Under the pieces are notes generated by a model that saw only the letters and a list, made by a program, of their open reading frames with translations, ran no database searches and was not told the DNA's origin. DNA of 32,000 nucleotides from Propionibacterium ruminifibrarum (GTDB taxonomy: Bacteria; Actinomycetota; Actinomycetes; Propionibacteriales; Propionibacteriaceae). Position 1 is the stretch's first letter. Every line of letters begins with the position of its first letter. The translations under genes and the position numbers were made by a program. This document shows positions 1-22,553 of this stretch, piece by piece. The stretch is taken from positions 337,099 through 369,098 of the forward strand of contig NZ_OMOH01000003.1 in the NCBI RefSeq assembly GCF_900289195.1. Reading direction: 5' to 3'.

Positions 1-306
1 AAGGTCGCCGAGGACGTCGTGGCGGGCAAGGCCGATCGCGGTGTCGTCGTCTGCGGCACCGGCATCGGCGTCTCGATCGCCGCCAACAAGGTCAAGGGCG
101 CCTACTGCGCCTGCGTCGCCGACGTCTACCAGGCCCAGCGGGCCACCCTGTCGAACAATGCGAACCTGATCGCCATGGGCTCGCAGGTGCTCGGCATCGA
201 GACGGCCAAGGTCCTGCTCGAGAACTACCTGGCCAACGAGTTCGACCCCAACTCGCGCAGCGGCGTCAAGGTCGCGCGTATCCGCGAATACGAGAACGAG
301 CACTGA
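1..306 (+). CDS. rpiB: ribose-5-phosphate isomerase B family (RpiB/LacAB) sugar-phosphate isomerase, 5' end cut by window edge
   Basis: Frame 1 is open from nt 1 (KVAEDVVAGKADRG...). The motif VVCGTGIGVSIAANKV...NANLIAMGSQV is the RpiB/LacAB core. Stop TGA at 304-306. Third codon positions are G/C rich. Confidence 0.85.
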   Translation, partial: KVAEDVVAGKADRGVVVCGTGIGVSIAANKVKGAYCACVADVYQAQRATLSNNANLIAMGSQVLGIETAKVLLENYLANEFDPNSRSGVKVARIREYENEH

Positions 307-333
307 GCGGTGCGGGGAAGCCGGGATCTGGAC

Positions 334-1080
334 ATGAGTGAACCGATCGTCGCGGTGAGTCTCAAGATGTACTTCGAGCGGGCCCGCACGCTCGACTACG
401 CCCGCTCGCTCGTCGAGCTGGTCGGCGCCGAACAGGGCCTGTCCGAGGCCGTGCGAATGGCCGTGCTGCCGGACTTCCTGACCATCGCCGAGGCCGGGAC
501 CATTCTCAACGGCTCGGGCATCGTGCTCGGCGCCCAGGACCTCTGCCAGGACGACCGCGGTGCGCGCACCGGCGAGGTGTCAGGCGCCGACCTGGCGGCT
601 CTCGGCGTCGGGGTCGTCGAGGTGGGCCACGCCGAGCGCCGAACGATCTACCGCGAGGACGATGCGATGGTCGCCGCGAAGACCGCGGCGGCCGTCCGCA
701 ACGGCATCATCCCACTGCTGTGCATCGGTGAGGCCGAGCGCTCCACCGAGGCGGAGGCGGCCGCCAAGTGCATCGCCCAGGTGCGCTCCGCCCTGGCCGG
801 TACCCGGCCGGACGATCTCTGGCTCGGTTACGAGCCCTACTGGGCGATCGGCGCTCCGGCTCCGGCGCCGTCCGAGTACGTCTCGGGCGTGTGTCGTCTG
901 ATCCGCGAGGGTCTCGGCGACGTGCCCGGCCTGAGCCTGCTGTACGGCGGCTCGGCCGGCCCCGGCCTGCTCGGTACGCTCGACCCGGCGATCGATGGCC
1001 TCTTCCTGGGACGCTTCGCCCACGACCCGGCCGCCTTCGTCTCGGTCGCCAAGGAGGCCCGTGACCGCGCGGTGGTCTGA
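334..1080 (+). CDS. triose-phosphate isomerase family protein, divergent paralog (TpiA2/EryH-like tetrulose/erythrulose-phosphate isomerase candidate)
   Basis: The TIM catalytic landmarks are present but non-canonical: VAVSLKMYF (Lys), VGHAERR (His), GYEPYWAIGAPAPA (Glu). The ORF track starts at GTG 310. ATG 334 (MSEPIVAV...) gives the usual short N-terminus. Confidence 0.8.
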   Translation: MSEPIVAVSLKMYFERARTLDYARSLVELVGAEQGLSEAVRMAVLPDFLTIAEAGTILNGSGIVLGAQDLCQDDRGARTGEVSGADLAALGVGVVEVGHAERRTIYREDDAMVAAKTAAAVRNGIIPLLCIGEAERSTEAEAAAKCIAQVRSALAGTRPDDLWLGYEPYWAIGAPAPAPSEYVSGVCRLIREGLGDVPGLSLLYGGSAGPGLLGTLDPAIDGLFLGRFAHDPAAFVSVAKEARDRAVV

Positions 1081-1113
1081 ACGGAGCCGTGACCCGCTTC
1101 TCGAACCCAGACG

Positions 1114-1159
1114 CACTGGCAGGAGCCGCCGGTACCATGCCCGGCGGTTCCTGCCAGTG
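1114..1159. terminator. long GC-rich hairpin between convergent genes (probable bidirectional terminator)
   Basis: CACTGGCAGGAGCCGCCGG (1114-1132), loop TACCATGC, CCGGCGGTTCCTGCCAGTG (1141-1159). This is a 19-bp stem with one G-U pair. It lies between the TIM-like stop (1080) and the GntR stop (1251). There is no U-tract. Confidence 0.55.
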
Positions 1160-1250
1160 CTGCGCACTGTGAGTCCGGTGTTCTTCCTCCCCGAGTGGCG
1201 CTCCGGGGAGATGTCGTCGGCGAGTGAGGCGCCAACGGGTCACGGCGGTG

Positions 1251-1982
1251 TCACATCTGGGCCGTGAGGCGTTTCGTCGCGGTTCTCATGTGGGCCCGCA
1301 TGGCCTGTTCGGCGGCCTCGACGTCGTGTTTCTCGAGTGCCCGCAGGATCTTCTCGTGCTCGCCCAGGGACTCGACGGCGTCGGCCACGCTGCTCAGTGC
1401 CCGATCCATCCAGATGCTCAGCAGGGTGCGGCAGGTGCGCAGCATGTCGGCGGTCAGGGTGTTGCCGCAACTGTCGACCAGGATGACGTGGAAGCGGTAG
1501 TCGATGGGGATGGTCTTCTGCACGTCGGGGAGTGCCTCGCGCATTGATTCGATGTTGTCCTGGAGCAGGCCGATGGCCTGCTCGTCGGCGCGTTCGGCGG
1601 CCAGACGTGCCGCCTCGACCTCGAGTGCCGAACGGACCTCGAGCAGCTGCTGCGTGTCGTGCTCGCCGAGCAGCATGCCCCAGGTCAGCGTCTTGGGCAG
1701 CAGATCCGATGTCGTGCCGCGCACGTACGTGCCCGCCCCGGGGCGCACTTCGACCAGGCCCAGCAGCTCGAGGGCGGCGAGCGCCTCGCGGACGGCCGAG
1801 CGCCCCACCCCCAGCTTCTCTGCCAGTGCGCGCTCCGGCGGCACCCGATCGCCCGTCGACAGGGGGCCGGTGCCGAAGTGAGCCAGCAGGTGCTGAGCGA
1901 CCTCGGCGGCCGTGGTCCCGCGGGGGAGCGTCGACATCTCCTGGAGGAACTCGTCGGCAGGGCCGGATGCGTATGCGGGCAT
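1251..1982 (-). CDS. GntR family transcriptional regulator, FadR/FCD subfamily
   Basis: N-terminal winged HTH: RVPPERALAEKLGVGRSAVREALAALELLGLVEVRPGAGTYV. The C-terminal helical FCD-like domain includes ...HEKILRALEKHDVEAAEQAMRAHM. Divergent from the MFS operon. Confidence 0.85.
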   Translation of the reverse strand: MPAYASGPADEFLQEMSTLPRGTTAAEVAQHLLAHFGTGPLSTGDRVPPERALAEKLGVGRSAVREALAALELLGLVEVRPGAGTYVRGTTSDLLPKTLTWGMLLGEHDTQQLLEVRSALEVEAARLAAERADEQAIGLLQDNIESMREALPDVQKTIPIDYRFHVILVDSCGNTLTADMLRTCRTLLSIWMDRALSSVADAVESLGEHEKILRALEKHDVEAAEQAMRAHMRTATKRLTAQM

Positions 1983-2137: not shown

Positions 2138-3469
2138 GTGTCGAGTGCTACAACCGTGAACCCGGCTGCTGAGAAGTCGGCGGTTCACAAGATCTCCGTG
2201 CGGCTGGTGCCATTCGTCGCACTGATGTTCTTCATCAACTTCCTCGATCGCACTGCGATCGGTTATGCGGGCCCCAACGGGATGCAGCAGGACCTGGGCA
2301 TGACGGCCGCCCAGTTCGGCCTGGCCTCGGGGGTGTTCTTCATCGGGTACATCATTCTTGAGGTCCCCTCGAACCTGGCGCTGCACCGATTCGGCGCCAG
2401 GGTCTGGCTGTCGCGCATCATGGTGTCGTGGGGCATCGTCGCCGTCCTGTTCACCTGGGTCCAGTCCAGCGGCCAGCTGTACGCCCTGCGTGTCCTGCTC
2501 GGCGTCGCCGAGGCCGGCTTCTTCCCCGGGGCCATCCTGTTCCTGAGCATGCTGGTGCCCTCGCAGCATCGCAGCCGTACCCTCATGCTCTTCTACCTGG
2601 CCCAGCCGCTCACCAGCGTGGTCGGGGCCCCGCTGGCCAGCTGGCTCATCCAGCACCACGGCGCCCTCGGGCTCGAGGGCTGGCGCTTCATGTACCTGTG
2701 CGTCGGCGCTCCGGCCATCATCGTCGGCATCGTCGCCTTCTTCTATCTGAAGGACAAGCCAGAGGACTGCCCATGGCTCACCGCGGAGGAGGTCGCGAGC
2801 CTTCGCACTCAGCTGGATGCCGAGGCTGCGGCCAACAGCGGCGAGAAGGGTGAGAAGAACGTCGTGGCCGCGCTCACCAGTGGCCGGGTGTGGGTCCTCT
2901 CGCTCATCTACTTCGGCTTCATCTACGGCCTGTACGCCCTGAGCTTCTTCCTGCCCACGATCATCAAGGGCTTCGGCGAACAGTTCGGCATCGAGTTGTC
3001 GATCCTCCAGCAGGGCCTGGTCACGGCCATCCCGTACGCCTTCGCCGCCCTCGCCATGTACGTCTGGTCGAAGGACGTCACCCGTCGCGGCCTGCGCAGC
3101 TGGCACATCGCCATTCCCGCCGCCATCGGCGGTGTCTCGATCCCGGTCGCCCTGTTCGTCGGTTCGCCGGTCATCGCCATCGGGGTCATCTCGATCACCG
3201 CCATGTCGATCTTCGCCGTGCTGCCGAACTTCTGGACGCTTCCCACGCAGTTCCTCACAGGAGCCCCCGCGGCTGCCGGCGTCGCCCTCATCAACACGAT
3301 CGGCAACATCGCCGGGTTCTCGGCCGGATACATCACCGGCGCGATCCATGACTGGACCGGCGGCTACACCGTCCCGATGTTCGTCGTCGGCGGCTTCATG
3401 ATCGTGTCCGCGACGCTCATGGTCCTGCTGGCCCGTCGCGGCCAGGTGAGGGTCGCCGACGCCTCCTGA
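2138..3469 (+). CDS. MFS transporter, anion:cation symporter (ACS) family (acid-sugar / tartrate-type permease)
   Basis: GAGGAGG RBS before GTG 2138. About 12 hydrophobic segments. ACS-like N-terminal signature FINFLDRTAIGYA...GYIILEVPSN...RVLLGVAEAGFFPG. Confidence 0.85.
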   Translation: MSSATTVNPAAEKSAVHKISVRLVPFVALMFFINFLDRTAIGYAGPNGMQQDLGMTAAQFGLASGVFFIGYIILEVPSNLALHRFGARVWLSRIMVSWGIVAVLFTWVQSSGQLYALRVLLGVAEAGFFPGAILFLSMLVPSQHRSRTLMLFYLAQPLTSVVGAPLASWLIQHHGALGLEGWRFMYLCVGAPAIIVGIVAFFYLKDKPEDCPWLTAEEVASLRTQLDAEAAANSGEKGEKNVVAALTSGRVWVLSLIYFGFIYGLYALSFFLPTIIKGFGEQFGIELSILQQGLVTAIPYAFAALAMYVWSKDVTRRGLRSWHIAIPAAIGGVSIPVALFVGSPVIAIGVISITAMSIFAVLPNFWTLPTQFLTGAPAAAGVALINTIGNIAGFSAGYITGAIHDWTGGYTVPMFVVGGFMIVSATLMVLLARRGQVRVADAS

Positions 3470-3498: not shown

Positions 3499-4320
3499 GT
3501 GAGGACAATGGGCCTGGGGATCGGCACCTACGCCCTGTTCTGGGAGTGGTCTGAGGCGGTCGAGCATCCCATCGACCTGACGGGCATGCTCGACGTGGCG
3601 GCCGAACTCGACTGCGATGTCTTTCAGATCTGCGACTACCCGCTCATCGAGACGATGGACGTCCATCAGCTGAACGACATCGCCGCCCAGGCTCGTGGGC
3701 TGGGCCTGGAGCTCGAGCTGGGCACCCGTGGCACACGCTCCGAGCACCTGAACAGGTACCTGGACATCGCCGAGACGCTGGGCGCCCACATGCTGCGCTC
3801 CATGGTGCGCGTGGGCGCCGGCGAACCCACACTCGACGAGTCCCTCGCCTCGGTCCGGGGACTGCTGGCGCGGCTCCACGAGAACGGCGTCTCGATCGCC
3901 TTCGAGACCTATGAACAGCTGCCCAGCGAGCGTCTCGTGCAGTTCGTGACCGATGTCAACGATCCGCACGTCGGCATCTGCCTCGACCCCGCCAACTGCG
4001 TCGCCGGGCTCGAACTGCCCGGTGACGTGATCGGTCGCTGTGCGCCGTACACGCTCAACCTGCACGTGAAGGACTTCGCCTTCACCCGCCAGGCGGGCTG
4101 GGTGGGGTTCACCTACGCGGGGGCGGCGATGGGGGAGGGGCTGCTCGACTTCGACGCCGAGATGAAGGCGGTCCGTCCCCTCGAACGGGGCATCAACATG
4201 ATCGTCGAGCACTGGCTCACCTGGCAGGGCGACCCGAAGTCCACCGTCGCGCTGGAGCGGCAGTGGACACGCCGGAGCCTCGACTACATCCGCAACTACA
4301 TCGAAACCAAGGAGAACTGA
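3499..4320 (+). CDS. sugar-phosphate isomerase/epimerase, xylose-isomerase-like TIM barrel
   Basis: E-D-H-E metal-ligand pattern typical of the family: AFETYE, CLDPANC, NLHVKD, IVEHW. Alternative start ATG 3508. Confidence 0.75.
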   Translation: MRTMGLGIGTYALFWEWSEAVEHPIDLTGMLDVAAELDCDVFQICDYPLIETMDVHQLNDIAAQARGLGLELELGTRGTRSEHLNRYLDIAETLGAHMLRSMVRVGAGEPTLDESLASVRGLLARLHENGVSIAFETYEQLPSERLVQFVTDVNDPHVGICLDPANCVAGLELPGDVIGRCAPYTLNLHVKDFAFTRQAGWVGFTYAGAAMGEGLLDFDAEMKAVRPLERGINMIVEHWLTWQGDPKSTVALERQWTRRSLDYIRNYIETKEN

Positions 4321-4323
4321 ACC

Positions 4324-5178
4324 ATGAGTGAGAACCTGAAGATCGCAGTCGTCGGCGCCGGCGGCAAGATGGGCATGCGCGTGTCCAACAACCTGCAGCG
4401 CACCGACTGGACCGTGTTCTACTGCGAGAACGGTGAGGCCGGGAGGCAGCGCGTGCAGGAGGCGGGCCGCGAGGTCGTGCCGACCGACGATGTCATCGGT
4501 GACGTCGACGTCGCGATCCTGGCCGTGCCCGACGTGGCCCTTGAGCCCGTCACCGCCGACGTCGTCCCCAAGATGAAGTCCGGCGCCATGGTGCTGACCC
4601 TCGACCCGGCGGCGGCCTATGCCGGCCTGCTGACCATGCGCGATGATCTCGACTATGTCGTGGCCCACCCCACGCATCCGTCGGTGTTCCTCGAGCGCCA
4701 CACGCCGGAGGAGTACGCCGACACCTTCGGTGGTGTTGCCGCCCCGCAGAACTCGGTCGCGGCGCTGCAGCAGGGCGACGAGTCGATCAAGCCGCTCGCC
4801 GAGAAGATCATCTCGACCATGTACGGTCCGGTCATCAAGGTCTACTGGACCTCGGTGCACGACCTGGCCGTGCTCGAACCCACCCTCAACGAGACCATCG
4901 GCTGCATGATCGGCCAGTTCCTCAAGGACGCCATCGACGCCACGGTATGCCACACCGACATGGACGAGGCGACCGTGACAGCCATGATCCATGGCCACAT
5001 CTGGATCGCCCTGACCAATGCCCTGCGCGGCTCGAACCCGTTCTCGGACGCCTGCCTGCTGGCCATGGACTACGGCCGCGAGGCCATCATCAAGGACGAT
5101 TGGGAACGCATCTTCAACGATGACGACCTCGACATCGTCATCGCCAAGATGCTCAAGCTCGACAAGGTCAGGCACTGA
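4324..5178 (+). CDS. NAD(P)-binding oxidoreductase (6-phosphogluconate-dehydrogenase-like fold)
   Basis: AAGGAG RBS. N-terminal Rossmann motif KIAVVGAGGKMG. The start lies 3 nt after the upstream stop, consistent with translational coupling. Substrate unknown. Confidence 0.65.
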   Translation: MSENLKIAVVGAGGKMGMRVSNNLQRTDWTVFYCENGEAGRQRVQEAGREVVPTDDVIGDVDVAILAVPDVALEPVTADVVPKMKSGAMVLTLDPAAAYAGLLTMRDDLDYVVAHPTHPSVFLERHTPEEYADTFGGVAAPQNSVAALQQGDESIKPLAEKIISTMYGPVIKVYWTSVHDLAVLEPTLNETIGCMIGQFLKDAIDATVCHTDMDEATVTAMIHGHIWIALTNALRGSNPFSDACLLAMDYGREAIIKDDWERIFNDDDLDIVIAKMLKLDKVRH

Positions 5179-5305: not shown

Positions 5306-7018
5306 ATGGGAGAGACAATGACGTACCTGGTTGGCGAGCCGCTGGATTTCGCGGCTGACAGTCTTGCGGGCTTCGTGGCCGCGCACTCTGATCTGGTCCA
5401 GGCGGTTCACGGTGGCGTGGTCCGCGCCGACGCCTCACCGCAGGGCGAGGTGGCCGTCGTCGTCGGCGGGGGTTCCGGTCATTACCCGGCGTTCGCGGGC
5501 TGGGTTGGCCCGGGCATGGCCCACGCTGCCGTCTGCGGCAACATCTTCGCCTCGCCGTCGGACTCGCAGGTCGTGTCGGTCTCGAGGGCGGCCGACAACG
5601 GCGGGGGCGTCCTGCTGCTGTTCGGCAACTACGCCGGTGACTGCCTTCAGTTCGGCAAGGGTGCCGAGGTGCTCAACGCCGAGGGCATCGCCACACGCAT
5701 CGAGACGATCACCGATGACGTGGCCTCGCGCCCCGTCGAGCAGTGGGCCGAGCGCCGGGGCATCGCCGGTGACTTCTTTGTCGTCAAGATTGCCGGCGCT
5801 GCCGCCGCGGCGGGCTACGACCTCGACGGTCTCGTAGAGGCCACCCGTCGCGCGAACGCAGCCACCAAGACCCTGGGCATCGCCTTCGACGCCCCGACCC
5901 TGCCCGGTGCTGCCGAGCCCCTGTTCACCGTGCCCGAGGGGCACTACGAACTCGGTCTGGGCATCCACGGCGAACCCGGCCTGTCCTCGCACCCGCTGAG
6001 CGGGGTCGATGATATCGCCAAGACCCTCGTCGAGGGCCTCCTCGCCGAGAAGCCTGCCGATGCGCGACGAGTCGGCGTCCTGGTCAACGGCCTGGGCTGC
6101 ACCAAGTACGAGGAGATGTTCGTCCTGTACGGGCGAGTGGCTCGGCTGCTCGAGGCCGCCGGCTTGCAGATCGTCGTCCCGATCGTCGACGAACAGGTCA
6201 CCAGTCTTGACATGGCCGGTGTCTCCCTGTCGGTCTGCTTCCTCGACGACGAGCTCGAGAAGCTCCTGCTCGCCCCGGCTCTGACACCGGCCTACACCCG
6301 TGGCGCCGTTGAACACGGCGGTCCTCGGCGCGAGGTCTCCACCGAGGAGAGCGCCGAGCTGGCGGCCGGTTCGCCGGAGTCGGCGGCGCAGGGCGCCAGA
6401 CTCGCCACGATCGTGGCCCTCATGGCCGAGACGGCCGTAGCCGATGCCGACTTCCTCGGCAGGCTCGACTCCATCGCCGGCGACGGCGATCACGGGCAGG
6501 GCATGGTGCTCGGTTCGCGTGCCGCGGCGAAGGCTGCTGCTGTCGCCTCGGATGCGGGGGCCGGTGCCGCGACAGTCCTGAAGCAGGCGGGTCTGGCATG
6601 GGCGGAAGGCGCAGGAGGCACCTCGGGGGCGTTGTGGGGTCGCGCGCTCGAGGCCGTGGGTGCGGGCCTGTCCGATGACGCGGCGGCCGATGCGGCCACA
6701 GTGATCGCCGCTGTCGCAGCCGGTGCCGAATCCGTGGCTGCCAGCGGCGGCGCCGTGCCAGGCGACAAGACGATGGTCGACGCCACTACTCCGTTCGCCG
6801 TTGCGCTGCGCGATGCCGGTGATGACCTGCCGGGCGCCTTCGCCACCGCGGCCAGGGCCGCCACTGACGGGGCAGAGGCGACCAAGGACCTCGTGGCCCG
6901 CAAGGGCCGCGCCACGACGCACGGCGACGCCTCACTCGGCCATCCCGACCCGGGGGCGATCTCCTTCGCCCGCCACATGACGAGGATTGCTGAGTACCTG
7001 GCCGATCATCAGGCCTGA
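5306..7018 (+). CDS. ATP-dependent dihydroxyacetone/ketose kinase, fused DhaK-DhaL domains (erythrulose kinase candidate)
   Basis: The DhaK-type N-terminal half includes VVGGGSGHYPAFAGWVGPGMAHAAVCGNIFASPS. The DhaL-type C-terminal half includes IAGDGDHGQGM...PGDKTMVD. Alternative start ATG 5318 (MTYLVGEP). Confidence 0.88.
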   Translation: MGETMTYLVGEPLDFAADSLAGFVAAHSDLVQAVHGGVVRADASPQGEVAVVVGGGSGHYPAFAGWVGPGMAHAAVCGNIFASPSDSQVVSVSRAADNGGGVLLLFGNYAGDCLQFGKGAEVLNAEGIATRIETITDDVASRPVEQWAERRGIAGDFFVVKIAGAAAAAGYDLDGLVEATRRANAATKTLGIAFDAPTLPGAAEPLFTVPEGHYELGLGIHGEPGLSSHPLSGVDDIAKTLVEGLLAEKPADARRVGVLVNGLGCTKYEEMFVLYGRVARLLEAAGLQIVVPIVDEQVTSLDMAGVSLSVCFLDDELEKLLLAPALTPAYTRGAVEHGGPRREVSTEESAELAAGSPESAAQGARLATIVALMAETAVADADFLGRLDSIAGDGDHGQGMVLGSRAAAKAAAVASDAGAGAATVLKQAGLAWAEGAGGTSGALWGRALEAVGAGLSDDAAADAATVIAAVAAGAESVAASGGAVPGDKTMVDATTPFAVALRDAGDDLPGAFATAARAATDGAEATKDLVARKGRATTHGDASLGHPDPGAISFARHMTRIAEYLADHQA

Positions 7019-7533: not shown

Positions 7534-7620
7534 AGCGCCATGGCCTCGTTCACACCAGTCGCCGAAACGGGCGGCGGGTTCACCAAGTTTTAGTTCAGCT
7601 ATGTGACAAGGAGGTCCATC

Positions 7621-9000: not shown

Positions 9001-9035
9001 ATCATGGAGAATATCTGACAAGGAGGATTGGAAAG

Positions 9036-9818: not shown

Positions 9819-9892
9819 GTGGTATCTGGGTGGCGGGTCTTGCCTCAATAGTGCCCGCCACCCGGGGTACCTGAGAAACAGGAGGAGGGATC

Positions 9893-11101: not shown

Positions 11102-11103
11102 CC

Positions 11104-11949: not shown

Positions 11950-11973
11950 TGTGAATGCTGGGAAGAGCTACTA

Positions 11974-13979: not shown

Positions 13980-14010
13980 CGCCCCGAGGCCCTCACCGGG
14001 CCGGCGTTTC
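13980..14010 (+). terminator. weak terminator-like hairpin after deoR
   Basis: CGCC..GGCCC-tcacc-GGGCC-GGCG followed by TTTCCTCT. The stem is imperfect, with an asymmetric internal loop. Confidence 0.3.
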
Positions 14011-14582: not shown

Positions 14583-15662
14583 ATGTTCACAACCTCCCTG
14601 GGGGTCTTCCTCTTCGGCCTGCTGGCCGCCATTGCCGGCGGAACCGTCGGCGCTGCGATCGGCGGCAACTACGCGTTCGTGCTCGTCGGTTTCTGCGTAC
14701 TCGCCTCATGGGGCATGTTCGCCGCCACCGGCAGCACCTTCGGCTTCGACTACCTGGCCTTCGGCCCCTTCATGGGGCCGCACATCGCCTTCGCAGGCGG
14801 CGTCGCGGCGGCCATCTACGCCCGCTACAAGGGACACTTCGATGACGGCAAGGACGTCAACTCCCCGCTGGCCGGCCTCGGCAAGCCCAGCGTCCTGATC
14901 GTCGGCGCCTGCTTCGGCGTCTTCGGCTACCTCTTGCAGATCGGTGTCAGCCACGTCCCGTGGTTCGGTTCCCACACCGACTCGGTCGCCTTCACCGTCC
15001 TGTGCTCCGGCCTGCTCGCTCGTATCGTCTTCGGCGGTGTTCCGGGCAAGGGCCTGTTCAAGGGATCGCTGCACAACCCCGAGGCCTTCCACGCCGACGC
15101 CACCAGCTTCCCGGCCAAGATCAAGCCCGGTCCCAACGGACGCTGGCTCGAGTGGCAGGAGAAGCCCTCGCAGCTCATCACCATCGGCTCGCTGTTCGGT
15201 GTCTTCGCGGGAGGCGCCGCGCTCTTCCTGGCCGCCAACGTCGGTGCCCATCTCACCGAGAAGGGTTTCGCCAACAACCTTGCGGCAGCGAACGCCAACA
15301 CCTTCGGTTTCGGCATCTCGGCCATCATCATCCTGTTCCTCATCACCAACCGGAACATGCCCGTTCAGCACCACGTGACGAACATCGCAGGCCTTGCCGC
15401 CGTCCAGTTCTTCCCCGTCCTCATGGGGGAGAGCTTCGCCACCTTCACCTGGACCGCCACCTCGGCCTGGGACTCGCACACCTGGTTGATGGCCTTCGTC
15501 GCGATCCTCATCGCGGGTTTCTTCGGTGTCGTCGCGGCAGCGCTCGGCGAGTTCGCCGCCCGCCTCTGGTACAACCGCGGTACGAGCCACATCGATCCTC
15601 CGGCCGCGTGCATCTGGATCAGCAACACCCTCGTCGTCTCACTGGCGGCGCTGCTGTCCTGA
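14583..15662 (+). CDS. uncharacterised polytopic integral membrane protein (about 10 hydrophobic segments), putative transporter
   Basis: AAAGGAACAAGG RBS before ATG 14583. High GC3. Gly/Ala/Phe-rich hydrophobic segments throughout. I recognise no family signature. First gene of the operon that continues into the HAD, FGGY, G1PDH-like and araB genes. Confidence 0.8.
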   Translation: MFTTSLGVFLFGLLAAIAGGTVGAAIGGNYAFVLVGFCVLASWGMFAATGSTFGFDYLAFGPFMGPHIAFAGGVAAAIYARYKGHFDDGKDVNSPLAGLGKPSVLIVGACFGVFGYLLQIGVSHVPWFGSHTDSVAFTVLCSGLLARIVFGGVPGKGLFKGSLHNPEAFHADATSFPAKIKPGPNGRWLEWQEKPSQLITIGSLFGVFAGGAALFLAANVGAHLTEKGFANNLAAANANTFGFGISAIIILFLITNRNMPVQHHVTNIAGLAAVQFFPVLMGESFATFTWTATSAWDSHTWLMAFVAILIAGFFGVVAAALGEFAARLWYNRGTSHIDPPAACIWISNTLVVSLAALLS

Positions 15663-15705
15663 GGGCCCGCGGCCCGATCGCCACGAAGGAAGAAGGGAAC
15701 CACGC

Positions 15706-16563
15706 ATGAGTCACGGTCTCGTGAGCAGCCCCACCGAGTTCGCCAGTGCCTACATCTTCGACCTCGACGGCACGATCTACCTCGGCAGCCAGCTGCTGCC
15801 CGGTGCCAAACGCTTGATCGAGGAATTGCGCCGACGCCGGATCCCGGTCCGCTTCCTGTCGAACAATCCCACCAGGGATCCCGACATGTACGTGAAGAAG
15901 CTGACCGGTCTGGGGCTGCCCACGGGGCTCGACGACATCTGCAACACCGTCGTGACCACCGTCCGCTGGCTCAAGCAGAACCACCCGGACGCCGTCCTGT
16001 TCCCGATCGCCGAGGAGCCCCTGTGCCGCGCCCTCACCGAGGCCGGCTTCGAGTTGAGCGATGACCCGTCCCGGATCGACATCGTCATCGCCTCCTACGA
16101 CCGCACCTTCGATTACCACAAACTCCAGGTCGCCTTCGACGCCATCTGGTTCCACAAACGGGCCATCCTCGTGCAGACCAACCCCGACCGCTTCTGCCCC
16201 TTCCCCGGCGGGCGCGGCGAGCCCGACTGCGCGGCCATCACCGCCGCCATCGAGGCCTGCACCGGTACCACGTGCCAGGTGAACTTCGGCAAGCCCTCGC
16301 CCGTGATGCTCACCGAGGCCCTGTCCGGCCTGGACGTCGACGTGGCCGACTGCGTCATGGTCGGTGATCGCCTCCAGACCGACATCCAGATGGCGCTCGA
16401 CGCCGGGATGAAATCGGCGTGCGTGCTCACCGGCGAGGCATCGCCGGCCGACATCGCCGCCCTCGACGAGGCCCACAGGCCCACCTACGTTCTCGACCGC
16501 GTCGACCGCCTCATCCCTGCCCGGTACTGGGGTGAACTCGGCTGGTCGGAGGACGACCTCTGA
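15706..16563 (+). CDS. HAD-IIA family sugar phosphatase (NagD/AraL-like)
   Basis: ATG 15706 follows a GAAGGAAGAAGGG RBS. The track ORF from 15526 overlaps the upstream gene and is Arg/Ser/Pro-rich junk. Motif I YIFDLDGTIY, FLSNNPT, GKP, VGDRLQTDI (motif IV). Confidence 0.88.
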   Translation: MSHGLVSSPTEFASAYIFDLDGTIYLGSQLLPGAKRLIEELRRRRIPVRFLSNNPTRDPDMYVKKLTGLGLPTGLDDICNTVVTTVRWLKQNHPDAVLFPIAEEPLCRALTEAGFELSDDPSRIDIVIASYDRTFDYHKLQVAFDAIWFHKRAILVQTNPDRFCPFPGGRGEPDCAAITAAIEACTGTTCQVNFGKPSPVMLTEALSGLDVDVADCVMVGDRLQTDIQMALDAGMKSACVLTGEASPADIAALDEAHRPTYVLDRVDRLIPARYWGELGWSEDDL

Positions 16564-16622
16564 AAACCGCAGGCTCCCAACGGGGGAGCGCTGCAAGTCA
16601 ACGTGCTCAAAGGAGAGTTCCC

Positions 16623-18182
16623 ATGACCGACAACGGCCCTTACGTGCTGGGTATCGACTACGGCACCGAGTCCTGCCGCGTGGCCATCTGCGATCTGCAA
16701 GGCCGCCCGATCACCTTCGCCGCCACGCCCTACAAGACCACTCACCCGCACCCGGGCTGGGCGGAGCAGAACCCGGAGGACTGGTGGAAGGCATTGCAGG
16801 CCTCCACTCACAAGGCCCTCGAGAGCTCGGGTATCCCGGCTTCCGCCATCGCCGGCATCTCCTACGACGCCACGACCTTGACGATGGTCGCCCTGGACGC
16901 CAGGGGTGTGGAGCTCCGCCCGGCCATCATGTGGATGGACGTGCGCGCCACCGAGCAGGCCGAACGGGCGAACTCGTCCGGGTCAGTGGCCCGTCTCTAC
17001 AACGGAGGTGGCCATTCCCCGGCGACGGCCGAGTGGTACCCCTTCAAGGCCGCCTGGTTGCGCGAGAACGAGCCCGAGACCTATGCCAAGGCAGCGCACC
17101 TGGTCGACGCGCCCGACTGGGTGACCTACAAGCTGACCGGCGAGTGGACCACCAACATCAACTCGGCCGCCATCCGCATGTACCACAACCGTGACAAGGG
17201 CGGCTGGCCGAAGGACTTCTACGAGACCATCGGCTGCGGAGACGTCTTCGACAAGATCCCCGAACGCGTCCTCGACCTGGGCGCCCCGGTCGGTGAGCTC
17301 GGCACCATCGCCGCCCAGCTGCTCGGCCTGCGTCCCGGTATCCCGGTCGCCCAGGGCATGGCCGACGCGTGGGCGGGCCAGATCGGTCTGGGCGTCCTGC
17401 AGCCCGGGCAGATGGCTCTCATCACCGGCTCCTCCCACGTCCTCACGGGCCAGTCGGACAAGGAGATCCATGGCGAGGGCTTCTTCGGCGCCTACACGGA
17501 CGGCGTCATGCCCGGCCAGTACACGGTCGAGGGCTCGCAGGTGTCCACCGGCTCGGTGCTCAAGTGGTTCCGCGACAATTTCGCCCGTGACGTCATCCAG
17601 GCGGCTGAGCGCGTCGGCCTCAACCCCTACGACGTGCTCAACGAGCAGTCAAGGAGCATCCGGCCCGGTTCGGACGGGCTCATCATCAATGAGTACTTCC
17701 AGGGCAACCGCACGCCGTACACGGACTCGAAGGCCCGTGGCATCGTCTGGGGTCTGTCGCTGGCCCACACCCCGGCTCACGTCTATCACGCGATTCAGGA
17801 GTCGGTCTGCTACGGGAATGCGCACAACCTGCGCGCCATGAAGGCCGCCGGTTTCGAGGTCAGCCGCATGGTGGCCTGCGGTGGCGCGACCAAGAGCCGT
17901 GACTGGATGCAGATGCACGCGGACGTCTCGGGCGTGCCGATCGCCCTGACCGAGGTCGGGGACGCGGTGGTGCTCGGAACCTGCATGCTTGCCGCGGTGG
18001 GTGCGGGGCTGTACAAGGATCTTCCCGAGGCGGCCGCCTCGATGGTCCACGAGATCGACGTCCTGGAGCCCGACCCCGAGCTGCACGAGGAATACGCGTT
18101 CTACGTGGACGCCTACTGCGACACGTACCCCAAGTTGCGGTCGATGATCCATGACATGGTGGACCACGAGGCGCAAAGGTGA
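16623..18182 (+). CDS. FGGY-family carbohydrate kinase (pentulose/polyol kinase type, substrate unknown)
   Basis: AAGGAG RBS. YVLGIDYGTESCRVAI...GWAEQNPEDWW (FGGY N-terminal). C-terminal GGATKSRDWMQMHADVSGVPI. 519 aa. Confidence 0.88.
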   Translation: MTDNGPYVLGIDYGTESCRVAICDLQGRPITFAATPYKTTHPHPGWAEQNPEDWWKALQASTHKALESSGIPASAIAGISYDATTLTMVALDARGVELRPAIMWMDVRATEQAERANSSGSVARLYNGGGHSPATAEWYPFKAAWLRENEPETYAKAAHLVDAPDWVTYKLTGEWTTNINSAAIRMYHNRDKGGWPKDFYETIGCGDVFDKIPERVLDLGAPVGELGTIAAQLLGLRPGIPVAQGMADAWAGQIGLGVLQPGQMALITGSSHVLTGQSDKEIHGEGFFGAYTDGVMPGQYTVEGSQVSTGSVLKWFRDNFARDVIQAAERVGLNPYDVLNEQSRSIRPGSDGLIINEYFQGNRTPYTDSKARGIVWGLSLAHTPAHVYHAIQESVCYGNAHNLRAMKAAGFEVSRMVACGGATKSRDWMQMHADVSGVPIALTEVGDAVVLGTCMLAAVGAGLYKDLPEAAASMVHEIDVLEPDPELHEEYAFYVDAYCDTYPKLRSMIHDMVDHEAQR

Positions 18183-18204
18183 GGAGTCTGGAGAGAAAGG
18201 GACA

Positions 18205-19566
18205 ATGATGTCAGATCTGATCGAGCAGGCACTGGCGAGCGCCGACGACACCGACAGGGTCGTGATGGGCGATGGGGTGCTCGCGGCGACGGGCCCCATG
18301 TTCAGGGAACTCTTCGGTCAGGCCAGGGGTGTCATCATCGCCGATGAGAACACCTGGGCGGCGGCCGGTGAGCAGGTGAGCGCATCGCTCAAGGACGCAG
18401 GCGTCGAACTCGCCGAGCCGTACGTCTTCCCGGGCAGCCCCAGCGTCTACGCCAAGTACGAGAACGTCGAGTTGCTGCGGGAATTCCTCGCGCCACTCGA
18501 TGCGAATGCCGTCGTCGTCGGCTCGGGGACGCTCAACGACCTCGTGAAGAGGGCCAGTGACGAGCTGGGGCGGCGTTATCTCGTCGTGTGCACCGCGGCG
18601 TCGATGGACGGCTATGCGGCGTTCGGCGCCTCGCTGTCGGTCGACGGGTTCAAGACGACGTTGACCTGCCGCGCGCCCCAGGGCCTCGTCGTCGACCTGC
18701 CGACCCTGGCAGCGGCGCCTCAGCGCTGCACCGCCACCGGCGTCGGCGATCTCATCGAGAAGATCCCAGCCGGAGCGGACTGGATCCTCGCCGATGAACT
18801 GGGCATCGAACCCATCGACCAGGGCTCCTGGGACCTGGCCCAGGGACGGTTGGAGGCCGCCATCAGCGACCCCCAGGGTCTGGTCGACCGTGAACCCGGC
18901 GCCTTCGTCGCCCTTGCCGAGGGATTGGTGCTCTCGGGCCTGTCGATGCAGAGATACCGCATCAGCTCCCGCCCGGCCTCCGGAGCCGGCCACCTCTTCT
19001 CACACGTCTGGGAGATGGAGCATCTTGGCATGGACGAGGACCCGCCGCTGACCCACGGCTTCAAGGTGGGGCTGGGCACGCTGGCCACCCTTGCGCTGTG
19101 GCAGAACGCCGTCGACCTCGACGTCTCGAGCATCGACACCGAGGAAGTCGTCGCCCGGTGGCGCAGCCGCGAGGACACCGAGGCCTTCGTGCGTTCCTGG
19201 TTCACCGGGAACATGGTGGAGCCGGCCGTCAAGCAGACACTCGACAAGTACCTCACCGCTGACGAACTGCGCGGACGCATCGAGCTGATCAAGGACAGGT
19301 GGCCCACGATCACGGAGCGGACCCGGGCGCAGATCATCCCGCCGGAACGGGCCGAGGCGATTCTCAAGCAGGTGGGGGCCTACTGGCACCCGCAGCAGAT
19401 CGGCCTGAGCCGTCAGCGCTTCCGGGACACCTATCTGCGCTGCCGCATGATCCGCAGCCGTTACACCCTGCCCGATGCCCTGTTCGAGCTCGGCGTGCTC
19501 GATGAACAGGTCGACCGATTGTTTGCGCCCGATGGCTTCTGGGGGCGGCGTCCCTGGGCCGAGTGA
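18205..19566 (+). CDS. sn-glycerol-1-phosphate dehydrogenase-like (AraM/EgsA family, iron-containing ADH superfamily) polyol-phosphate dehydrogenase
   Basis: ATG 18205 follows GAGAGAAAGGG. VVVGSGTLNDLVK...VCTAASMDGYAAFGAS...DGFKTT...GVGDLIEK...GHLFSHVWEMEH resembles the G1PDH nucleotide and metal-binding motifs. The track start 18151 overlaps the kinase gene. Confidence 0.75.
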   Translation: MMSDLIEQALASADDTDRVVMGDGVLAATGPMFRELFGQARGVIIADENTWAAAGEQVSASLKDAGVELAEPYVFPGSPSVYAKYENVELLREFLAPLDANAVVVGSGTLNDLVKRASDELGRRYLVVCTAASMDGYAAFGASLSVDGFKTTLTCRAPQGLVVDLPTLAAAPQRCTATGVGDLIEKIPAGADWILADELGIEPIDQGSWDLAQGRLEAAISDPQGLVDREPGAFVALAEGLVLSGLSMQRYRISSRPASGAGHLFSHVWEMEHLGMDEDPPLTHGFKVGLGTLATLALWQNAVDLDVSSIDTEEVVARWRSREDTEAFVRSWFTGNMVEPAVKQTLDKYLTADELRGRIELIKDRWPTITERTRAQIIPPERAEAILKQVGAYWHPQQIGLSRQRFRDTYLRCRMIRSRYTLPDALFELGVLDEQVDRLFAPDGFWGRRPWAE

Positions 19567-19685
19567 CTGGCACGCCGGGTGCCGGGCACGTCATCGGCGG
19601 GCCGGAGGGTCGATCCGCCCGGCCCGGTACCCGGATGACCGAGCAGCTCGGCAACCCTGCCCCTGTTTCTCGACGAGGAGGAAAC

Positions 19686-21353
19686 ATGACTGAGAAATAT
19701 GTAGTGGGACTGGATTTCGGTACCCTGTCCGGCCGAGCCGCCGTGGTTCGCGTCAGTGACGGTGAGATGGTCGGCACGGCGGTCTGCGAGTACCCGCATG
19801 CCGTGATGGACACGAGACTGACCGCGGCGAACGGGCAGGAACTGCCACCAGACTTCGCGCTGCAGGACCCGAGCGACTACCTCACCGCACTCTACGAGAC
19901 GGTCCCCGCGGCCGTGGCCGACTCGGGCGTCGAACCGGCCGACATCATCGGCGTGGGCCTGGACTTCACCTCGGCGACCGTCGTGGCAGCCACCGCCGAG
20001 GGCACCCCGGTGTGCGAGCTGCCGCAGTTCGCGGACAACCCGCACGCCTGGGTGAAGCTGTGGAAGCACCATGGTGCCGTCGAGCAGGCCCGGCGCATCG
20101 TCGATGTCGCCACTGAGCGAGGCGAGGAGTGGCTGAGCCGCTATGGCGGCGTGCTCAACTCCGAGATGCTGCTGCCCAAGGTCGCCGAGACCCTGGAGTG
20201 TGCTCCCGAGGTCTATGCGGCCACGGACGTCTTCTGCGAGGCCATGGACTGGCTCACCTGGCACCTGACCGGCCGGTTGACCTTCTCAGCGGGCTCGTCC
20301 GGCTACAAACGCATCCTCCAGGACGGCCGGTACCCGTCCAGGGACTTCCTGCGCCAGGTGAACCCGGGTCTGGAGAACGTCTACGACGAGAAGATGAACG
20401 CACCGGTCCTGCCCCTCGGCCACAACGTCGGTGGCCTGCTGCCGGAGGTGGCGTCCAGACTCGGGTTGCCGGCCGGCATCGCAGTGGCCAGCGGGAACAT
20501 CGACGCCCATGTCACCGGCCCGGCGGTGCAGGGCGTCGAGGACGGTGTCATGACGGCCATCATGGGAACGTCGGTCTGCTACCTGCTCTCATGGCCGACA
20601 CCTGCTCCGGTAGCCGGCATCTTCGGGATCGTCGATGGGGGGATCGTCGACGGCTCCTGGGGTTTCGAGGCGGGCCAGACCGCAGCCGGCGACATCTTCG
20701 CCTGGTTCGTCGACACCTGCGTCCCCGCCCGGTACCAGGCCGAGGCCGACGAGCTGGGCATCCCGGTGCACGAACTGCTCACCCGCAAGTGCGAGCATCA
20801 GCCGGTCGGCGCCCACGGACTGGTGGCCTTGGACTGGCACAACGGCAACCGCTCAACCCTCATGGACGCACAGTTGTCCGGCCTCATGCTGGGCACGAGT
20901 CTCACCACGACGCCCGAGGACCAGTATCGAGCCCTGCTCGAGTCCTGCGCCTTCGGGGCCAGGACGATCATCGAGGCCTTCGTCTCGGCGGGGATCGACA
21001 TCGAAGAACTCGTCGTGGCCGGCGGCCTGACCAGGAACCGCCTGTTCATGCAGATCCTTGCCGACGTCTGCCGTCGTCCCCTCTCGGTCGGTACCGCCGA
21101 GCAGCCCGGCGCCCTCGGCTCGGCCATCTTCGCCACCGTCGCGGCAGGGGAGTATCCCGATGTCAAGGCTGCTTCGGCTGCCATGGGGGCGAAGAAGGAG
21201 GGCGTCTACCTGCCCGACGAGGCCCGCGCGGATCAGTATGACCTGCTGTATGCGGAGTACAGCAGGCTGTACGACTACTTCGGCCGAGGCGGCAACGAGG
21301 TCATGCACCGGTTGAAGAGCCTCCGGGCGCAGGCCCGGGCAGCTTCTGCATAG
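19686..21353 (+). CDS. araB: L-ribulokinase (FGGY family, AraB type)
   Basis: GAGGAGG RBS before ATG 19686. YVVGLDFGTLSGRAAVVRVSDGEMVGTAVCEYPHAVMD...LPPDFALQDPSDY is the characteristic AraB N-terminus. C-terminal GGLTRNRLFMQILADV. The track start 19563 is an upstream extension without coding character. Confidence 0.88.
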   Translation: MTEKYVVGLDFGTLSGRAAVVRVSDGEMVGTAVCEYPHAVMDTRLTAANGQELPPDFALQDPSDYLTALYETVPAAVADSGVEPADIIGVGLDFTSATVVAATAEGTPVCELPQFADNPHAWVKLWKHHGAVEQARRIVDVATERGEEWLSRYGGVLNSEMLLPKVAETLECAPEVYAATDVFCEAMDWLTWHLTGRLTFSAGSSGYKRILQDGRYPSRDFLRQVNPGLENVYDEKMNAPVLPLGHNVGGLLPEVASRLGLPAGIAVASGNIDAHVTGPAVQGVEDGVMTAIMGTSVCYLLSWPTPAPVAGIFGIVDGGIVDGSWGFEAGQTAAGDIFAWFVDTCVPARYQAEADELGIPVHELLTRKCEHQPVGAHGLVALDWHNGNRSTLMDAQLSGLMLGTSLTTTPEDQYRALLESCAFGARTIIEAFVSAGIDIEELVVAGGLTRNRLFMQILADVCRRPLSVGTAEQPGALGSAIFATVAAGEYPDVKAASAAMGAKKEGVYLPDEARADQYDLLYAEYSRLYDYFGRGGNEVMHRLKSLRAQARAASA

Positions 21354-21395
21354 TGATCTGACTGGCCTGCGCAGCAGCGGCCAGAGCGCGAGGCA

Positions 21396-21426
21396 CTGGG
21401 CCCCCGTCATCAAGGCGGGGGCCCAG
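21396..21426 (+). terminator. hairpin terminator after araB
   Basis: CTGGGCCCCCG (21396-21406), loop TCATCAAGG, CGGGGGCCCAG (21416-21426). Perfect 11-bp stem, 43 nt after stop 21353. Confidence 0.55.
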
Positions 21427-21543
21427 CCATGTCGTTGAGCAGCGCACTGTCGATGGACTCTGAAGCTCCGGCCGGTCCTGTACCGCTGCCACTGAACGAA
21501 GAACTGAGCCGGTGCCATGGCGATCTGGGCTCGCCGGAAGCTA

Positions 21544-21571
21544 TGGACAAATAGAATATATGATCTATGAT
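21544..21571 (+). promoter_or_regulatory. sigma-A type promoter candidate containing tandem TATGAT hexamers
   Basis: -35 TGGACA (21544-21549), 16-nt spacer, -10 TATGAT (21566-21571). The sequence TATGAT-C-TATGAT is repeated exactly at 7283-7295. Lies 47 nt upstream of ATG 21618. Confidence 0.45.
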
Positions 21572-21656
21572 CGTCTCATGACGTCCGACCAACGGTGATC
21601 GGACGGGAGAGGACCAGATGTACACGGCTGATGCATGGCCCATCGCCTGCAAGATG
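21557..21656 (+). repeat. copy B of duplicated promoter / 5'UTR / first-13-codon segment (copy A at 7281-7377)
   Basis: See copy A. Same block order, with indels between the blocks. Confidence 0.8.
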
Positions 21657-22553
21657 AACTTCGGACCACTCGCCGAGGACGGCACCCCCATCGCGGAGGC
21701 CCCGCTGGAGATCTGGCGGGATCAGCTCCTCCAAGTCGCCGAACTGGGGTTCAAGCACTTCGACCCCATGGACGACTGGATCCCCCTCGCCGACATCAGC
21801 GAGGAACGGTTCGCACAGTTCCAAGTGCTGCTCGACGAGACCGGCCTGGCCTGCCCGGCCATGTCGATCGGGCGGAACAGCGTCATCGATGCGGACAGGG
21901 GTGATGAGAACCTCGCGCTCGTGCACCGCACCATCGACAGGGCCTCGGCGCTCGGCGCCACCATCGTCAACATCGGCTTCCAGCAGGAGCTCACGGAGCC
22001 CCAGAAGGAGGCGTTGTGGTTCTGGCTGGCTGACGGGCACCACGATGACCCGGGGTTGTATGACCTCGCAGTGGAGCGGGTCAGGGAACTCGCTGACCAC
22101 GCCCAGCGTCTGGGCCTGCAGATCAGTCTGGAGATGTACGAGGACACGTTCATCGGCACCGTCGACGGTGCTCTGCAGTTCCACCATGACGTTGATCATC
22201 CTGCTGTCGGGATCAACCCCGACCTGGGAAACCTGATCAGGTTGCACCGGCCCATGCCGAAGGGTGAGGAGATGTACGAGAGACTTCTTCCGCTCTCGAA
22301 CTACTGGCACATCAAGAGCTACATCCGCGACGAGGATGACGTCACCGGTGCGTACATGTCAGCGCCCGTGCCGCTCAAGTACGGCGTCGTGAATTACCGA
22401 GCGGTGATCAGACGGGCAATCCAAGTGGGATATGACGGCCCCTTCATGACCGAACACTATGGCTCGGATTGGCTTGGGGTGGGCGCCGAGAACGCTGAAT
22501 ACATCAGGCAGGTCTTGAGGGGAGCCTTGCGCTCTTTCGGGCGTGACAAGTAG
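21618..22553 (+). CDS. sugar-phosphate isomerase/epimerase, xylose-isomerase-like TIM barrel (UlaE/SgbU/EryC-type fold)
   Basis: E-D-H-E ligand pattern: SLEMYED, GINPDLGN, YWHIKS, MTEHYG. 311 aa. Confidence 0.78.
   Translation: MYTADAWPIACKMNFGPLAEDGTPIAEAPLEIWRDQLLQVAELGFKHFDPMDDWIPLADISEERFAQFQVLLDETGLACPAMSIGRNSVIDADRGDENLALVHRTIDRASALGATIVNIGFQQELTEPQKEALWFWLADGHHDDPGLYDLAVERVRELADHAQRLGLQISLEMYEDTFIGTVDGALQFHHDVDHPAVGINPDLGNLIRLHRPMPKGEEMYERLLPLSNYWHIKSYIRDEDDVTGAYMSAPVPLKYGVVNYRAVIRRAIQVGYDGPFMTEHYGSDWLGVGAENAEYIRQVLRGALRSFGRDK

Follow-up and report, generated by a model that had tools for sequence, protein, structure and literature searches.

A conserved gene cassette resides at 13136-21353 in a 32,000-nucleotide stretch of the Propionibacterium ruminifibrarum genome (contig NZ_OMOH01000003.1, positions 337,099 to 369,098), called the window hereafter. 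The cassette may encode a phosphorylative system for the catabolism of polyols, with erythritol as the leading substrate candidate and with pentitols (ribitol, arabitol) probably added by an AraB-type kinase, an assignment that we hold in even balance. It is the best candidate for the genes of the propionibacterial fermentation of erythritol, and perhaps of ribitol. As a whole, the window is a hub for four-carbon sugars, assembled from separate conserved modules, and includes no single Brucella-type operon. Genes were mapped from a listing of open reading frames (ORFs) and from Pfam and NCBIfam scans of the window, and the 16 kb upstream were read from the same genome. The cassette (module C) is made up of six genes.

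13136..13972, + strand: DeoR-family regulator of the cassette (PF00455 and PF08220)
14583..15662, + strand: DUF7973 membrane protein with ~10 transmembrane segments, the presumed cassette permease
15703..16563, + strand: HAD-IIA (AraL/NagD/PGP-like) sugar-phosphate phosphatase, called HAD (PF13344 and PF13242; TIGR01460, 103 bits against a cut-off of 100)
16623..18182, + strand: FGGY kinase, called FGGY1, a candidate polyol (erythritol) kinase (PF00370 and PF02782)
18205..19566, + strand: metal-dependent NAD(P) dehydrogenase of 453 aa, AraM/sn-glycerol-1-phosphate dehydrogenase (G1PDH)-like, a candidate polyol-phosphate dehydrogenase (PF13685, Fe-ADH_2/DHQS-like fold with an NAD(P) site, 109 bits)
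19686..21353, + strand: second FGGY kinase in the cassette, a ribulokinase paralog of the AraB type (NF003154 and TIGR01234)

A first-pass annotation of the window had placed FGGY1, the DeoR regulator and the G1PDH-like enzyme at these same coordinates, and the three genes are found there. Its gene list was incomplete, as it omitted the second FGGY kinase, HAD-IIA and DUF7973 in the cassette, and further away a Dak kinase, a PGDH_C oxidoreductase, an L-rhamnonate island and the DUF1537 and PdxA genes upstream of the window, all described below.

The cassette is defined by the presence of FGGY1 and HAD beside the dehydrogenase gene. Sixty-one related loci feature sufficient flanking DNA, and FGGY1 and HAD accompany the dehydrogenase gene in 42 of them, in Propionibacteriaceae and Actinomycetaceae; HAD (at least 55% identity) was found in 43 loci, 42 of which also have FGGY1. 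Cassettes have been identified in taxa ranging from Propionibacterium and Cutibacterium to Actinomyces, Trueperella and Mobiluncus. FGGY1 orthologues are 63-98% identical across cassettes, and the proteins of P. australiense are 93-98% identical to those of the window across the cassette. Genes are usually ordered as DeoR, RpiB paralog (usually present), DUF7973, HAD-IIA, FGGY, AraM-like dehydrogenase, and AraB-type kinase (usually present). The membrane protein is conserved in 41 of the 42 cassettes, an RpiB paralog in 37 (34 of an actinobacterial type, 3 of the RpiB2 type described below), AraB in 35, and DeoR in 26. Less frequent are a zinc alcohol dehydrogenase (Zn-ADH, 11/42), Dak (7/42), and the xylose-isomerase-like XI2 (2/42), and no cassette includes a paralog of triose-phosphate isomerase (TIM). 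FGGY1 is split into two frames in Cutibacterium modestum (locus L015, 8416-9977) and in the public contig ERR5159244 (locus L097, 1642-3127), and the split genes may be natural knock-outs.

The RpiB of the cassette is an extra copy, as another RpiB resides elsewhere in each of 5 genomes tested, and a housekeeping role of the cassette gene is thereby ruled out. When TIM2/EryH-type TIM paralogs were sought elsewhere in five cassette genomes, 4 of the 5 were found to carry only canonical TIM. The clade of the window (this genome, P. australiense and P. acidifaciens) has lost the cassette RpiB, and a decayed rpiB was not detected by tblastn in the 611-nt gap between DeoR and permease, where relatives carry one. 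The RpiB2-TIM2 pair located at the left end of the window is a candidate to finish the cassette route in this organism; in other settings the pair serves a tetrulose module built around a Dak kinase.

FGGY1 remains under the cut-off of every NCBIfam equivalog (XylB, 280 of 380; ribulokinase, 276 of 428). The start of the dehydrogenase at 18205 is backed by a ribosome-binding site. Homologues of ~452 aa are widespread in Propionibacteriaceae and Actinomycetaceae, and all are annotated as sn-glycerol-1-phosphate dehydrogenase. The match to the G1PDH equivalog NF002022 measures 135 bits against a cut-off of 413, and covers residues 36-317 of the 471-aa ORF read from the ATG at 18151, corresponding to residues ~18-299 of the 453-aa protein. 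By sequence as by fold, the best PDB match is 9h4x, the AraM protein of Bacillus subtilis (112 bits by sequence). The AlphaFold model (pLDDT 90) has 9h4x as top Foldseek match (TM 0.82 normalised to the target, 23% identity), followed by G1PDH and then by GldA/glycerol dehydrogenase structures. Residues D182, H263, H267 and H284 are invariant in 16 relatives and align with the GDM...HHISH...HG motifs of AraM; ~60 additional residues are found at the C-terminus relative to AraM. The enzyme is thus predicted to be AraM-like in fold and chemistry, G1PDH activity being only a candidate role.

The AraB-type kinase, the start of which was re-set to the ATG located behind GGAGGA, exceeds the cut-offs of NF003154 (689 bits, cut-off 428) and TIGR01234 (643, cut-off 583). 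A role in the L-arabinose pathway is ruled out for this kinase, because AraA (PF02610) was not found in the genome, which is 100% complete. A second AraB-type ribulokinase (contig C33, 395627-397453), an AraD-like L-ribulose-5-phosphate 4-epimerase (contig C22, 69762-70430) and a ribulose-1-phosphate/fuculose-phosphate-aldolase-like gene (contig C34, 10427-11119) reside elsewhere in the genome. The membrane protein of the window has no match in the local Pfam or NCBIfam copies; its P. freudenreichii orthologue, 82% identical, carries PF25928 (DUF7973). The DeoR protein is 38% identical to the DeoR of a tetritol-type cluster of Arthrobacter, and 32% identical to rhizobial EryR.

From gene identities, cassette conservation and synteny we infer the substrates, the direction of flux and the carbon oxidised in the following scheme. 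The polyol would enter via the DUF7973 permease and be phosphorylated by the FGGY kinase at the expense of ATP. The AraM-like, metal- and NAD(P)-dependent dehydrogenase would oxidise the polyol phosphate to a ketose phosphate, to be converted by the RpiB-type isomerase into an aldose phosphate of the pentose-phosphate pathway, while the HAD phosphatase may be a relief valve against the build-up of polyol phosphate. Erythritol would in this manner be processed to D-erythritol 4-phosphate, erythrulose phosphate, and eventually D-erythrose 4-phosphate. Two variants can be envisaged. Oxidation at C2 would turn D-erythritol 4-phosphate into D-erythrulose 4-phosphate, for which RpiB alone would suffice. 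Oxidation at C3, next to the phosphate, would yield L-erythrulose 1-phosphate, and a TIM-type isomerase or an aldolase would be required; in P. freudenreichii a TIM-type gene adjoins the cassette, and in the window one lies nearby. The gene content favours oxidation at C2 over oxidation of the carbon next to the phosphate, because RpiB is nearly always, and TIM never, found in the cassettes.

The erythritol kinase of Propionibacterium (P. pentosaceum), EC 2.7.1.27, makes D-erythritol 4-phosphate, in which both carbinol carbons are in the configuration of sn-glycerol 1-phosphate. The product of Brucella EryA is L-erythritol 4-phosphate, which resembles sn-glycerol 3-phosphate, the type of substrate used by the GlpD-like EryB. 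This stereochemistry is the strongest chemical support for a G1PDH-like enzyme in the place of EryB. It is possible, and suggested here tentatively, that the cassette is the propionibacterial erythritol pathway in a precise sense, FGGY1 being the orphan EC 2.7.1.27 and the AraM-like enzyme the first polyol-phosphate dehydrogenase of the G1PDH family, the two forming a stereochemical mirror of Brucella EryA and EryB. An RpiB-type isomerase alone would then reach erythrose 4-phosphate, and a TIM-type isomerase would also be needed if the dehydrogenase product were L-erythrulose 1-phosphate.

Textbooks list the fermentation of erythritol and adonitol among the traits that identify dairy and skin propionibacteria. 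Both polyols are fermented by all 21 P. freudenreichii strains tested; in the corresponding study of 21 genomes neither pathway was reconstructed, no Brucella-type genes were found, and it was stated that the pathways must differ from all those described (PMC4437456). Pseudopropionibacterium massiliense P6184 carries a full cassette (locus L062). Erythritol, adonitol and both enantiomers of arabitol (D and L) are used by this strain, whereas L-arabinose, glycerol and xylitol are not (PMC6849414). For five other cassette species, no API phenotypes were found in the literature. Searches of the recent literature on erythritol catabolism retrieved only Brucella, Ochrobactrum-derived and Yarrowia systems, with no paper describing the cassette; those on AraM/AraL and on D-erythritol 4-phosphate retrieved only unrelated matches (aramid fibres, methylerythritol phosphate pathway). 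The propionibacterial erythritol genes have been missing since the 1950s-60s, and the cassette provides a concrete, testable candidate. Erythritol is a mass-market sweetener, and its use a strain-typing trait in Cutibacterium acnes. If the assignment is true, a gene would be given to an orphan EC number, the G1PDH/AraM family would extend to sugar-alcohol phosphates, and the Brucella erythritol route would have a counterpart of opposite stereochemistry. It would also explain why AraL- and AraM-like genes travel with FGGY kinases, and give AraL and AraM of arabinose operons a role on polyol phosphates.

Some points weigh against this assignment. The cassette RpiB of most genomes passes the equivalog of actinobacterial ribose-5-phosphate isomerase, and AraB passes the ribulokinase equivalogs; a route from pentitols to ribulose 5-phosphate therefore fits equally. 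Most cassette genomes have no TIM paralog, and a route via L-erythrulose 1-phosphate would thus be devoid of an isomerase there. The scheme does not strictly require the phosphatase or two kinases. The P. pentosaceum scheme, in the form in which it is cited in PMC10733421, suggests aldolase cleavage of erythrulose 1-phosphate, and the cassette has no gene for this step. The support provided by phenotypes comes from two taxa, without negative controls.

The two equivalog matches are among the reasons to consider that the cassette serves pentitols only. Ribitol or arabitol would be phosphorylated by FGGY1 and/or AraB, the AraM-like enzyme would form ribulose or xylulose 5-phosphate, RpiB would form ribose 5-phosphate, and erythritol would be processed elsewhere, as by a dehydrogenase and Dak. 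E. coli ribulokinase accepts ribitol and L-arabitol, a transketolase gene follows the cassette in P. freudenreichii, and both cassette-positive taxa of known phenotype use adonitol. However, ribulose 5-phosphate needs no dedicated isomerase, because a housekeeping RpiB is found in each genome, and dedicated RpiB paralogs are typical of tetritol clusters; moreover, the cassette adjoins an EryH-type isomerase and Dak kinases, and AraB is missing from 7 of the 42 cassettes. A restriction to pentitols is plausible but rather unlikely.

The first-pass annotation had assembled a single Brucella-type route over 22 kb of the window, with FGGY1 as EryA, the G1PDH-like enzyme in place of EryB and oxidising the carbon adjacent to the phosphate, a xylose-isomerase-like barrel as EryC, a TIM paralog as EryH, RpiB as EryI, and DeoR in control. 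The RpiB, TIM and xylose-isomerase-like parts are found on either side of the cassette, in module A, which reaches from upstream of the window to 7018, and in XI2.

1..306, + strand: RpiB2, C-terminal two thirds of an RpiB/LacAB-family sugar-phosphate isomerase paralog (PF02502); the full gene starts 132 nt upstream of the window
310..1080, + strand: TIM2, divergent triose-phosphate-isomerase paralog, a candidate tetrulose-phosphate isomerase (PF00121, 165 bits)
1251..1982, - strand: GntR/FCD regulator of module A (PF00392 and PF07729)
2138..3469, + strand: MFS1, major facilitator superfamily (MFS) transporter of the anion:cation-symporter type (PF07690; best NCBIfam match, the D-galactonate transporter subfamily)
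3499..4320, + strand: XI1, xylose-isomerase-like TIM-barrel protein (PF01261)
4324..5178, + strand: PGDH_C-domain NAD(P) oxidoreductase of the beta-hydroxyacid-dehydrogenase type (PF16896)
5306..7018, + strand: fused Dak1/Dak2 ATP-dependent kinase, candidate erythrulose/dihydroxyacetone-type kinase (PF02733 and PF02734; NF011049, 666 bits)
21618..22553, + strand: XI2, xylose-isomerase-like barrel, first gene of the XI2-HCDH-MFS3 module (PF01261)

The rpiB gene followed by a divergent TIM paralog at 1-1080 and the two TIM-barrel isomerase/epimerase genes are thus present as first described, and the absence of a GlpD/DAO-type gene is borne out, none being detected among the window proteins in the Pfam and NCBIfam scans; GlpD homologues reside far from the window, on contigs C21 (2659-4146) and C19. 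Of the protein families in the Brucella route, GlpD is hence the only one without a representative in the window. However, the claim that all roles but EryB are filled holds for protein families only, as neither an EryA nor an EryC orthologue was found, and TIM2 falls outside the EryH clade. As the Brucella/Rhizobium reference, we took the erythritol locus on pRL12 of Rhizobium johnstonii, which has been defined genetically and encodes EryA, B, C, D, R, H and I. FGGY1 is 23% identical to R. johnstonii EryA (51 bits); an EryA orthologue is missing from the whole genome, in which the best match is a glycerol-kinase-like gene on contig C19 (26%), and AraB gives no match. XI1 and XI2 have no BLASTP match to EryC (E<1e-3), nor was EryC detected by tblastn in the whole genome.

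On the RpiB subfamily model, full-length RpiB2 reaches 142 bits; on the D-erythrulose-4-phosphate isomerase model NF051858 (cut-off 240) it reaches 129.6 bits, and the cassette RpiBs of relatives reach 138-150. The identity of RpiB2 to EryI of Rhizobiaceae is 41-52%. TIM2 retains the catalytic Lys, His and Glu, and scores 158 bits on the TpiA equivalog model, the cut-off of which is 293. It is 45-46% identical to the TIMs of Erwinia and Arthrobacter Dak clusters, 36-38% to EryH, which is thus about as distant as ordinary TpiA, and 32% to TpiA of the same genome. In a tree, TIM proteins branch into three clades, formed by canonical TpiA, by the EryH type, with the solved L-erythrulose-1-phosphate isomerase (PDB 11ef) among its members, and by a Dak-linked type to which TIM2 belongs. 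TIM2 scores 118 bits on 11ef, lower than its scores on ordinary TIMs. Pairwise identity, PDB ranking and tree rule out TIM2 as an EryH orthologue.

Parts of the Brucella-type scheme are better connected in P. freudenreichii, where genes are ordered as GntR, PGDH_C remnant, Dak, TIM, DeoR, short-chain dehydrogenase/reductase (SDR), RpiB, DUF7973, HAD, FGGY1, G1PDH-like, AraB, transketolase. An EryH-type TIM and RpiB thus flank kinase and dehydrogenase: the TIM located beside the cassette groups with EryH in the tree, and has 11ef as best PDB match (217 bits, against at most 157 for ordinary TIMs). The rhamnonate island aside, the window would show the same adjacency of Dak and DeoR. In other genera, Zn-ADH and Dak are located just upstream of DeoR (Acidipropionibacterium) or downstream of the cassette (Trueperella, Georgenia), and an isomerase of the RpiB2 type, 67-72% identical to RpiB2, is found in place of the cassette RpiB in Mobiluncus and Trueperella. 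The notion that rpiB/TIM and kinase/dehydrogenase act together is therefore supported by synteny in this genus, but the genes do not form one operon in the window.

The cassette, as read here, and the Brucella/Rhizobium system share the logic of an FGGY kinase, the oxidation of a polyol phosphate, isomerases leading to erythrose 4-phosphate, DeoR/SorC regulators and a dedicated RpiB paralog. In contrast, the cassette dehydrogenase belongs to the NAD(P)- and metal-dependent AraM/G1PDH family rather than to the FAD-dependent GlpD type, a DUF7973 permease takes the place of an ATP-binding cassette (ABC) transporter, and a HAD phosphatase and a second kinase are present. An EryC orthologue is lacking; most cassettes lack a TIM paralog, and the one in the window belongs to another clade. 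XI1, XI2, TIM2 and RpiB2 are part of other conserved modules with a Dak kinase of their own, TIM paralogs are absent from and XI2 rare in the 42 cassettes, and the parts are split by the rhamnonate island. An EryC-type epimerase would in addition be superfluous if the kinase product were D-erythritol 4-phosphate. One route of the Brucella type across the window is therefore improbable, and the proposal is not supported in that form. The replacement of EryB by the G1PDH-like enzyme survives in outline, as FGGY1 and the dehydrogenase are adjacent in a conserved cassette, but the XI and TIM partners assigned to it are not cassette members.

The araB-araL-araM genes of B. subtilis code for a ribulokinase, a HAD-IIA phosphatase and a Ni-dependent G1PDH (9h4x), and the same three families are linked in one operon in the cassette. 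The AraM-like enzyme might accordingly be a true sn-glycerol-1-phosphate dehydrogenase, and the AraB/AraL/AraM-like trio a set for side activities, metabolite repair or glycerol phosphate, with no dedicated polyol pathway; AraM, the closest solved structure, is a proven G1PDH, and public annotations of the family agree. The B. subtilis linkage of AraB, HAD-IIA phosphatase and AraM is a further point in favour. Unlike the B. subtilis ara genes, however, the cassette resides in a genome without AraA and in a locus without AraD, and includes a further FGGY kinase, an RpiB paralog and a permease. The distance from the G1PDH equivalog cut-off, the low identity to AraM and the C-terminal extension described above, the location inside a DeoR-controlled operon with permease, second kinase and dedicated isomerase, and the failure of a cassette-positive strain to use glycerol make this decidedly improbable. 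A reductive role of the cassette is hardly credible. In it, RpiB would isomerise erythrose 4-phosphate or ribose 5-phosphate, the AraM-like enzyme would reduce the product, and HAD would remove the phosphate to leave a free polyol acting as electron sink or compatible solute. RpiB, dehydrogenase and phosphatase are the set that such a route needs, and heterofermentative lactic acid bacteria are thought to make erythritol reductively (PMC12542623). Against it, a DeoR repressor, a permease at the head of the genes and a pair of ATP-dependent kinases are typical of catabolism, and the carriers of the cassette are known polyol fermenters.

Module A is composed of three units: SorC divergent in strand from MFS, DUF1537 kinase, PdxA, RpiB2 and TIM2; GntR; and MFS1, XI1, PGDH_C and Dak. 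The genes upstream of the window are, in order, SorC (minus strand), an acid-sugar-type MFS transporter, a DUF1537 kinase, a PdxA-family dehydrogenase and RpiB2. The kinase has D-threonate kinase as best match (191 bits, equivalog cut-off 450). This SorC-linked operon (locus L004, 10712-16305, running into the window at 1-1080) couples the DUF1537 kinase and the PdxA-family dehydrogenase to RpiB2-TIM2. DUF1537 kinase, PdxA family, acid-sugar MFS and SorC are features of the DUF1537/PdxA2 tetronate pathways, which lead from D-threonate and D-erythronate to dihydroxyacetone phosphate. In contrast to the latter, the operon continues into RpiB2-TIM2, not needed by the described routes, and its kinase is below the cut-off.

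The tetritol system of M. smegmatis relies on the polyol dehydrogenase EltD, the Dak-family kinases LerK/DerK, the TIM-family LerI and the RpiB-family DerI, and was represented in comparisons by a plasmid cluster of Arthrobacter; LerI is a TpiA homologue (PMC10733421). Besides Dak, RpiB, DeoR and a TIM that is 46% identical to TIM2, the Arthrobacter cluster includes two polyol dehydrogenases and an ABC transporter composed like the erythritol transporter of rhizobia, and has the M. smegmatis-type tetritol layout. Module A similarly features Dak, a TIM paralog and an RpiB paralog, and in several genera the cassette has Dak and Zn-ADH genes as neighbours; yet module A lacks both the Zn-ADH polyol dehydrogenase and the ery-type ABC transporter. 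The acid-sugar MFS, PGDH_C, XI-like barrel and GntR found instead point to a feeder for acid sugars rather than for tetritols.

TIM2-type genes were found in 8 of 300 sampled Actinomycetes genomes, and the gene context was read for 7. The gene adjoins Dak and RpiB in compact clusters in 6 of the 7, the seventh having DeoR and Zn-ADH instead; the order of genes is different in Erwinia and in the Arthrobacter plasmid. The Erwinia plasmid carries a compact cluster (rpiB / MFS-Dak-TIM-XI-PGDH_C-SorC), the products of which are identical to those of the window at 67% (MFS1), 54% (PGDH_C), 49% (Dak), 48% (XI1) and 45% (TIM2) of residues. Dak is also 49% identical to the Arthrobacter cluster protein, and 63% identical to the Dak that abuts the cassette in P. 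freudenreichii. A GntR orthologue adjoins Dak-RpiB-TIM clusters in other actinomycetes. PDB relatives of the PGDH_C oxidoreductase (5t57 and 3c24) carry no assigned function.

Actinomycete Dak clusters carry either XI1 and PGDH_C or XI2, HCDH and MFS. XI1 is accompanied by PGDH_C, Dak, RpiB and TIM in three actinomycete genomes besides this one; in three other actinomycete genomes, orthologues of the XI2 module are located in GntR-XI2-Dak-RpiB-HCDH-(SDR)-MFS-TIM clusters. Because of this alternation, XI1 and XI2 are best viewed as predicted feeder enzymes of two acid-sugar/tetrulose modules, marked by GntR and anion-type MFS transporters, rather than as stand-ins for EryC, and the two modules appear to have a Dak-TIM-RpiB lower pathway in common. 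XI2 scores 412 bits on PDB 5tnv, a structure with no assigned function. The gene is preceded by 264 nt containing a promoter-like site at 21544-21571, and is followed by HCDH (3-hydroxyacyl-CoA-dehydrogenase family) and MFS3; the three form one module at 21618-25158, which may encode an uncharacterised route from acid sugar to tetrulose.

Module A is separated from the cassette by one further block.

7603..12783: L-rhamnonate island, made of MFS, SDR, L-rhamnonate dehydratase, keto-deoxy-rhamnonate aldolase and GntR (NCBIfam matches)

The dehydratase scores 700 bits on NF011968 (cut-off 393), the aldolase 289 bits. GC content measures 56-57% in the island versus ~65% elsewhere, and P. australiense has a rhamnonate module in the same arrangement. 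The island is an insertion between modules, unrelated to the polyol genes. A stretch of ~92 nt, 75% identical, is found twice in the window, at 7281-7372 and 21557-21645, and combines a promoter-like site with an AT-rich TATATGATCTATGAT box and the initial codons of XI2. The copy at 7281-7372 is located directly after Dak, at the left edge of the rhamnonate island. The presence of the repeat on both sides suggests that the 14-kb block formed by rhamnonate island and cassette was placed by rearrangement. At the right end of the window, the pyruvate formate-lyase gene (27839-30330) stops at 30043, ahead of the glycyl-radical motif, and the missing C-terminus (…RVSGYAVNF…) can be read in another frame, at ~30060-30330; the break may result from a frameshift or a sequencing error, or the gene may be split.

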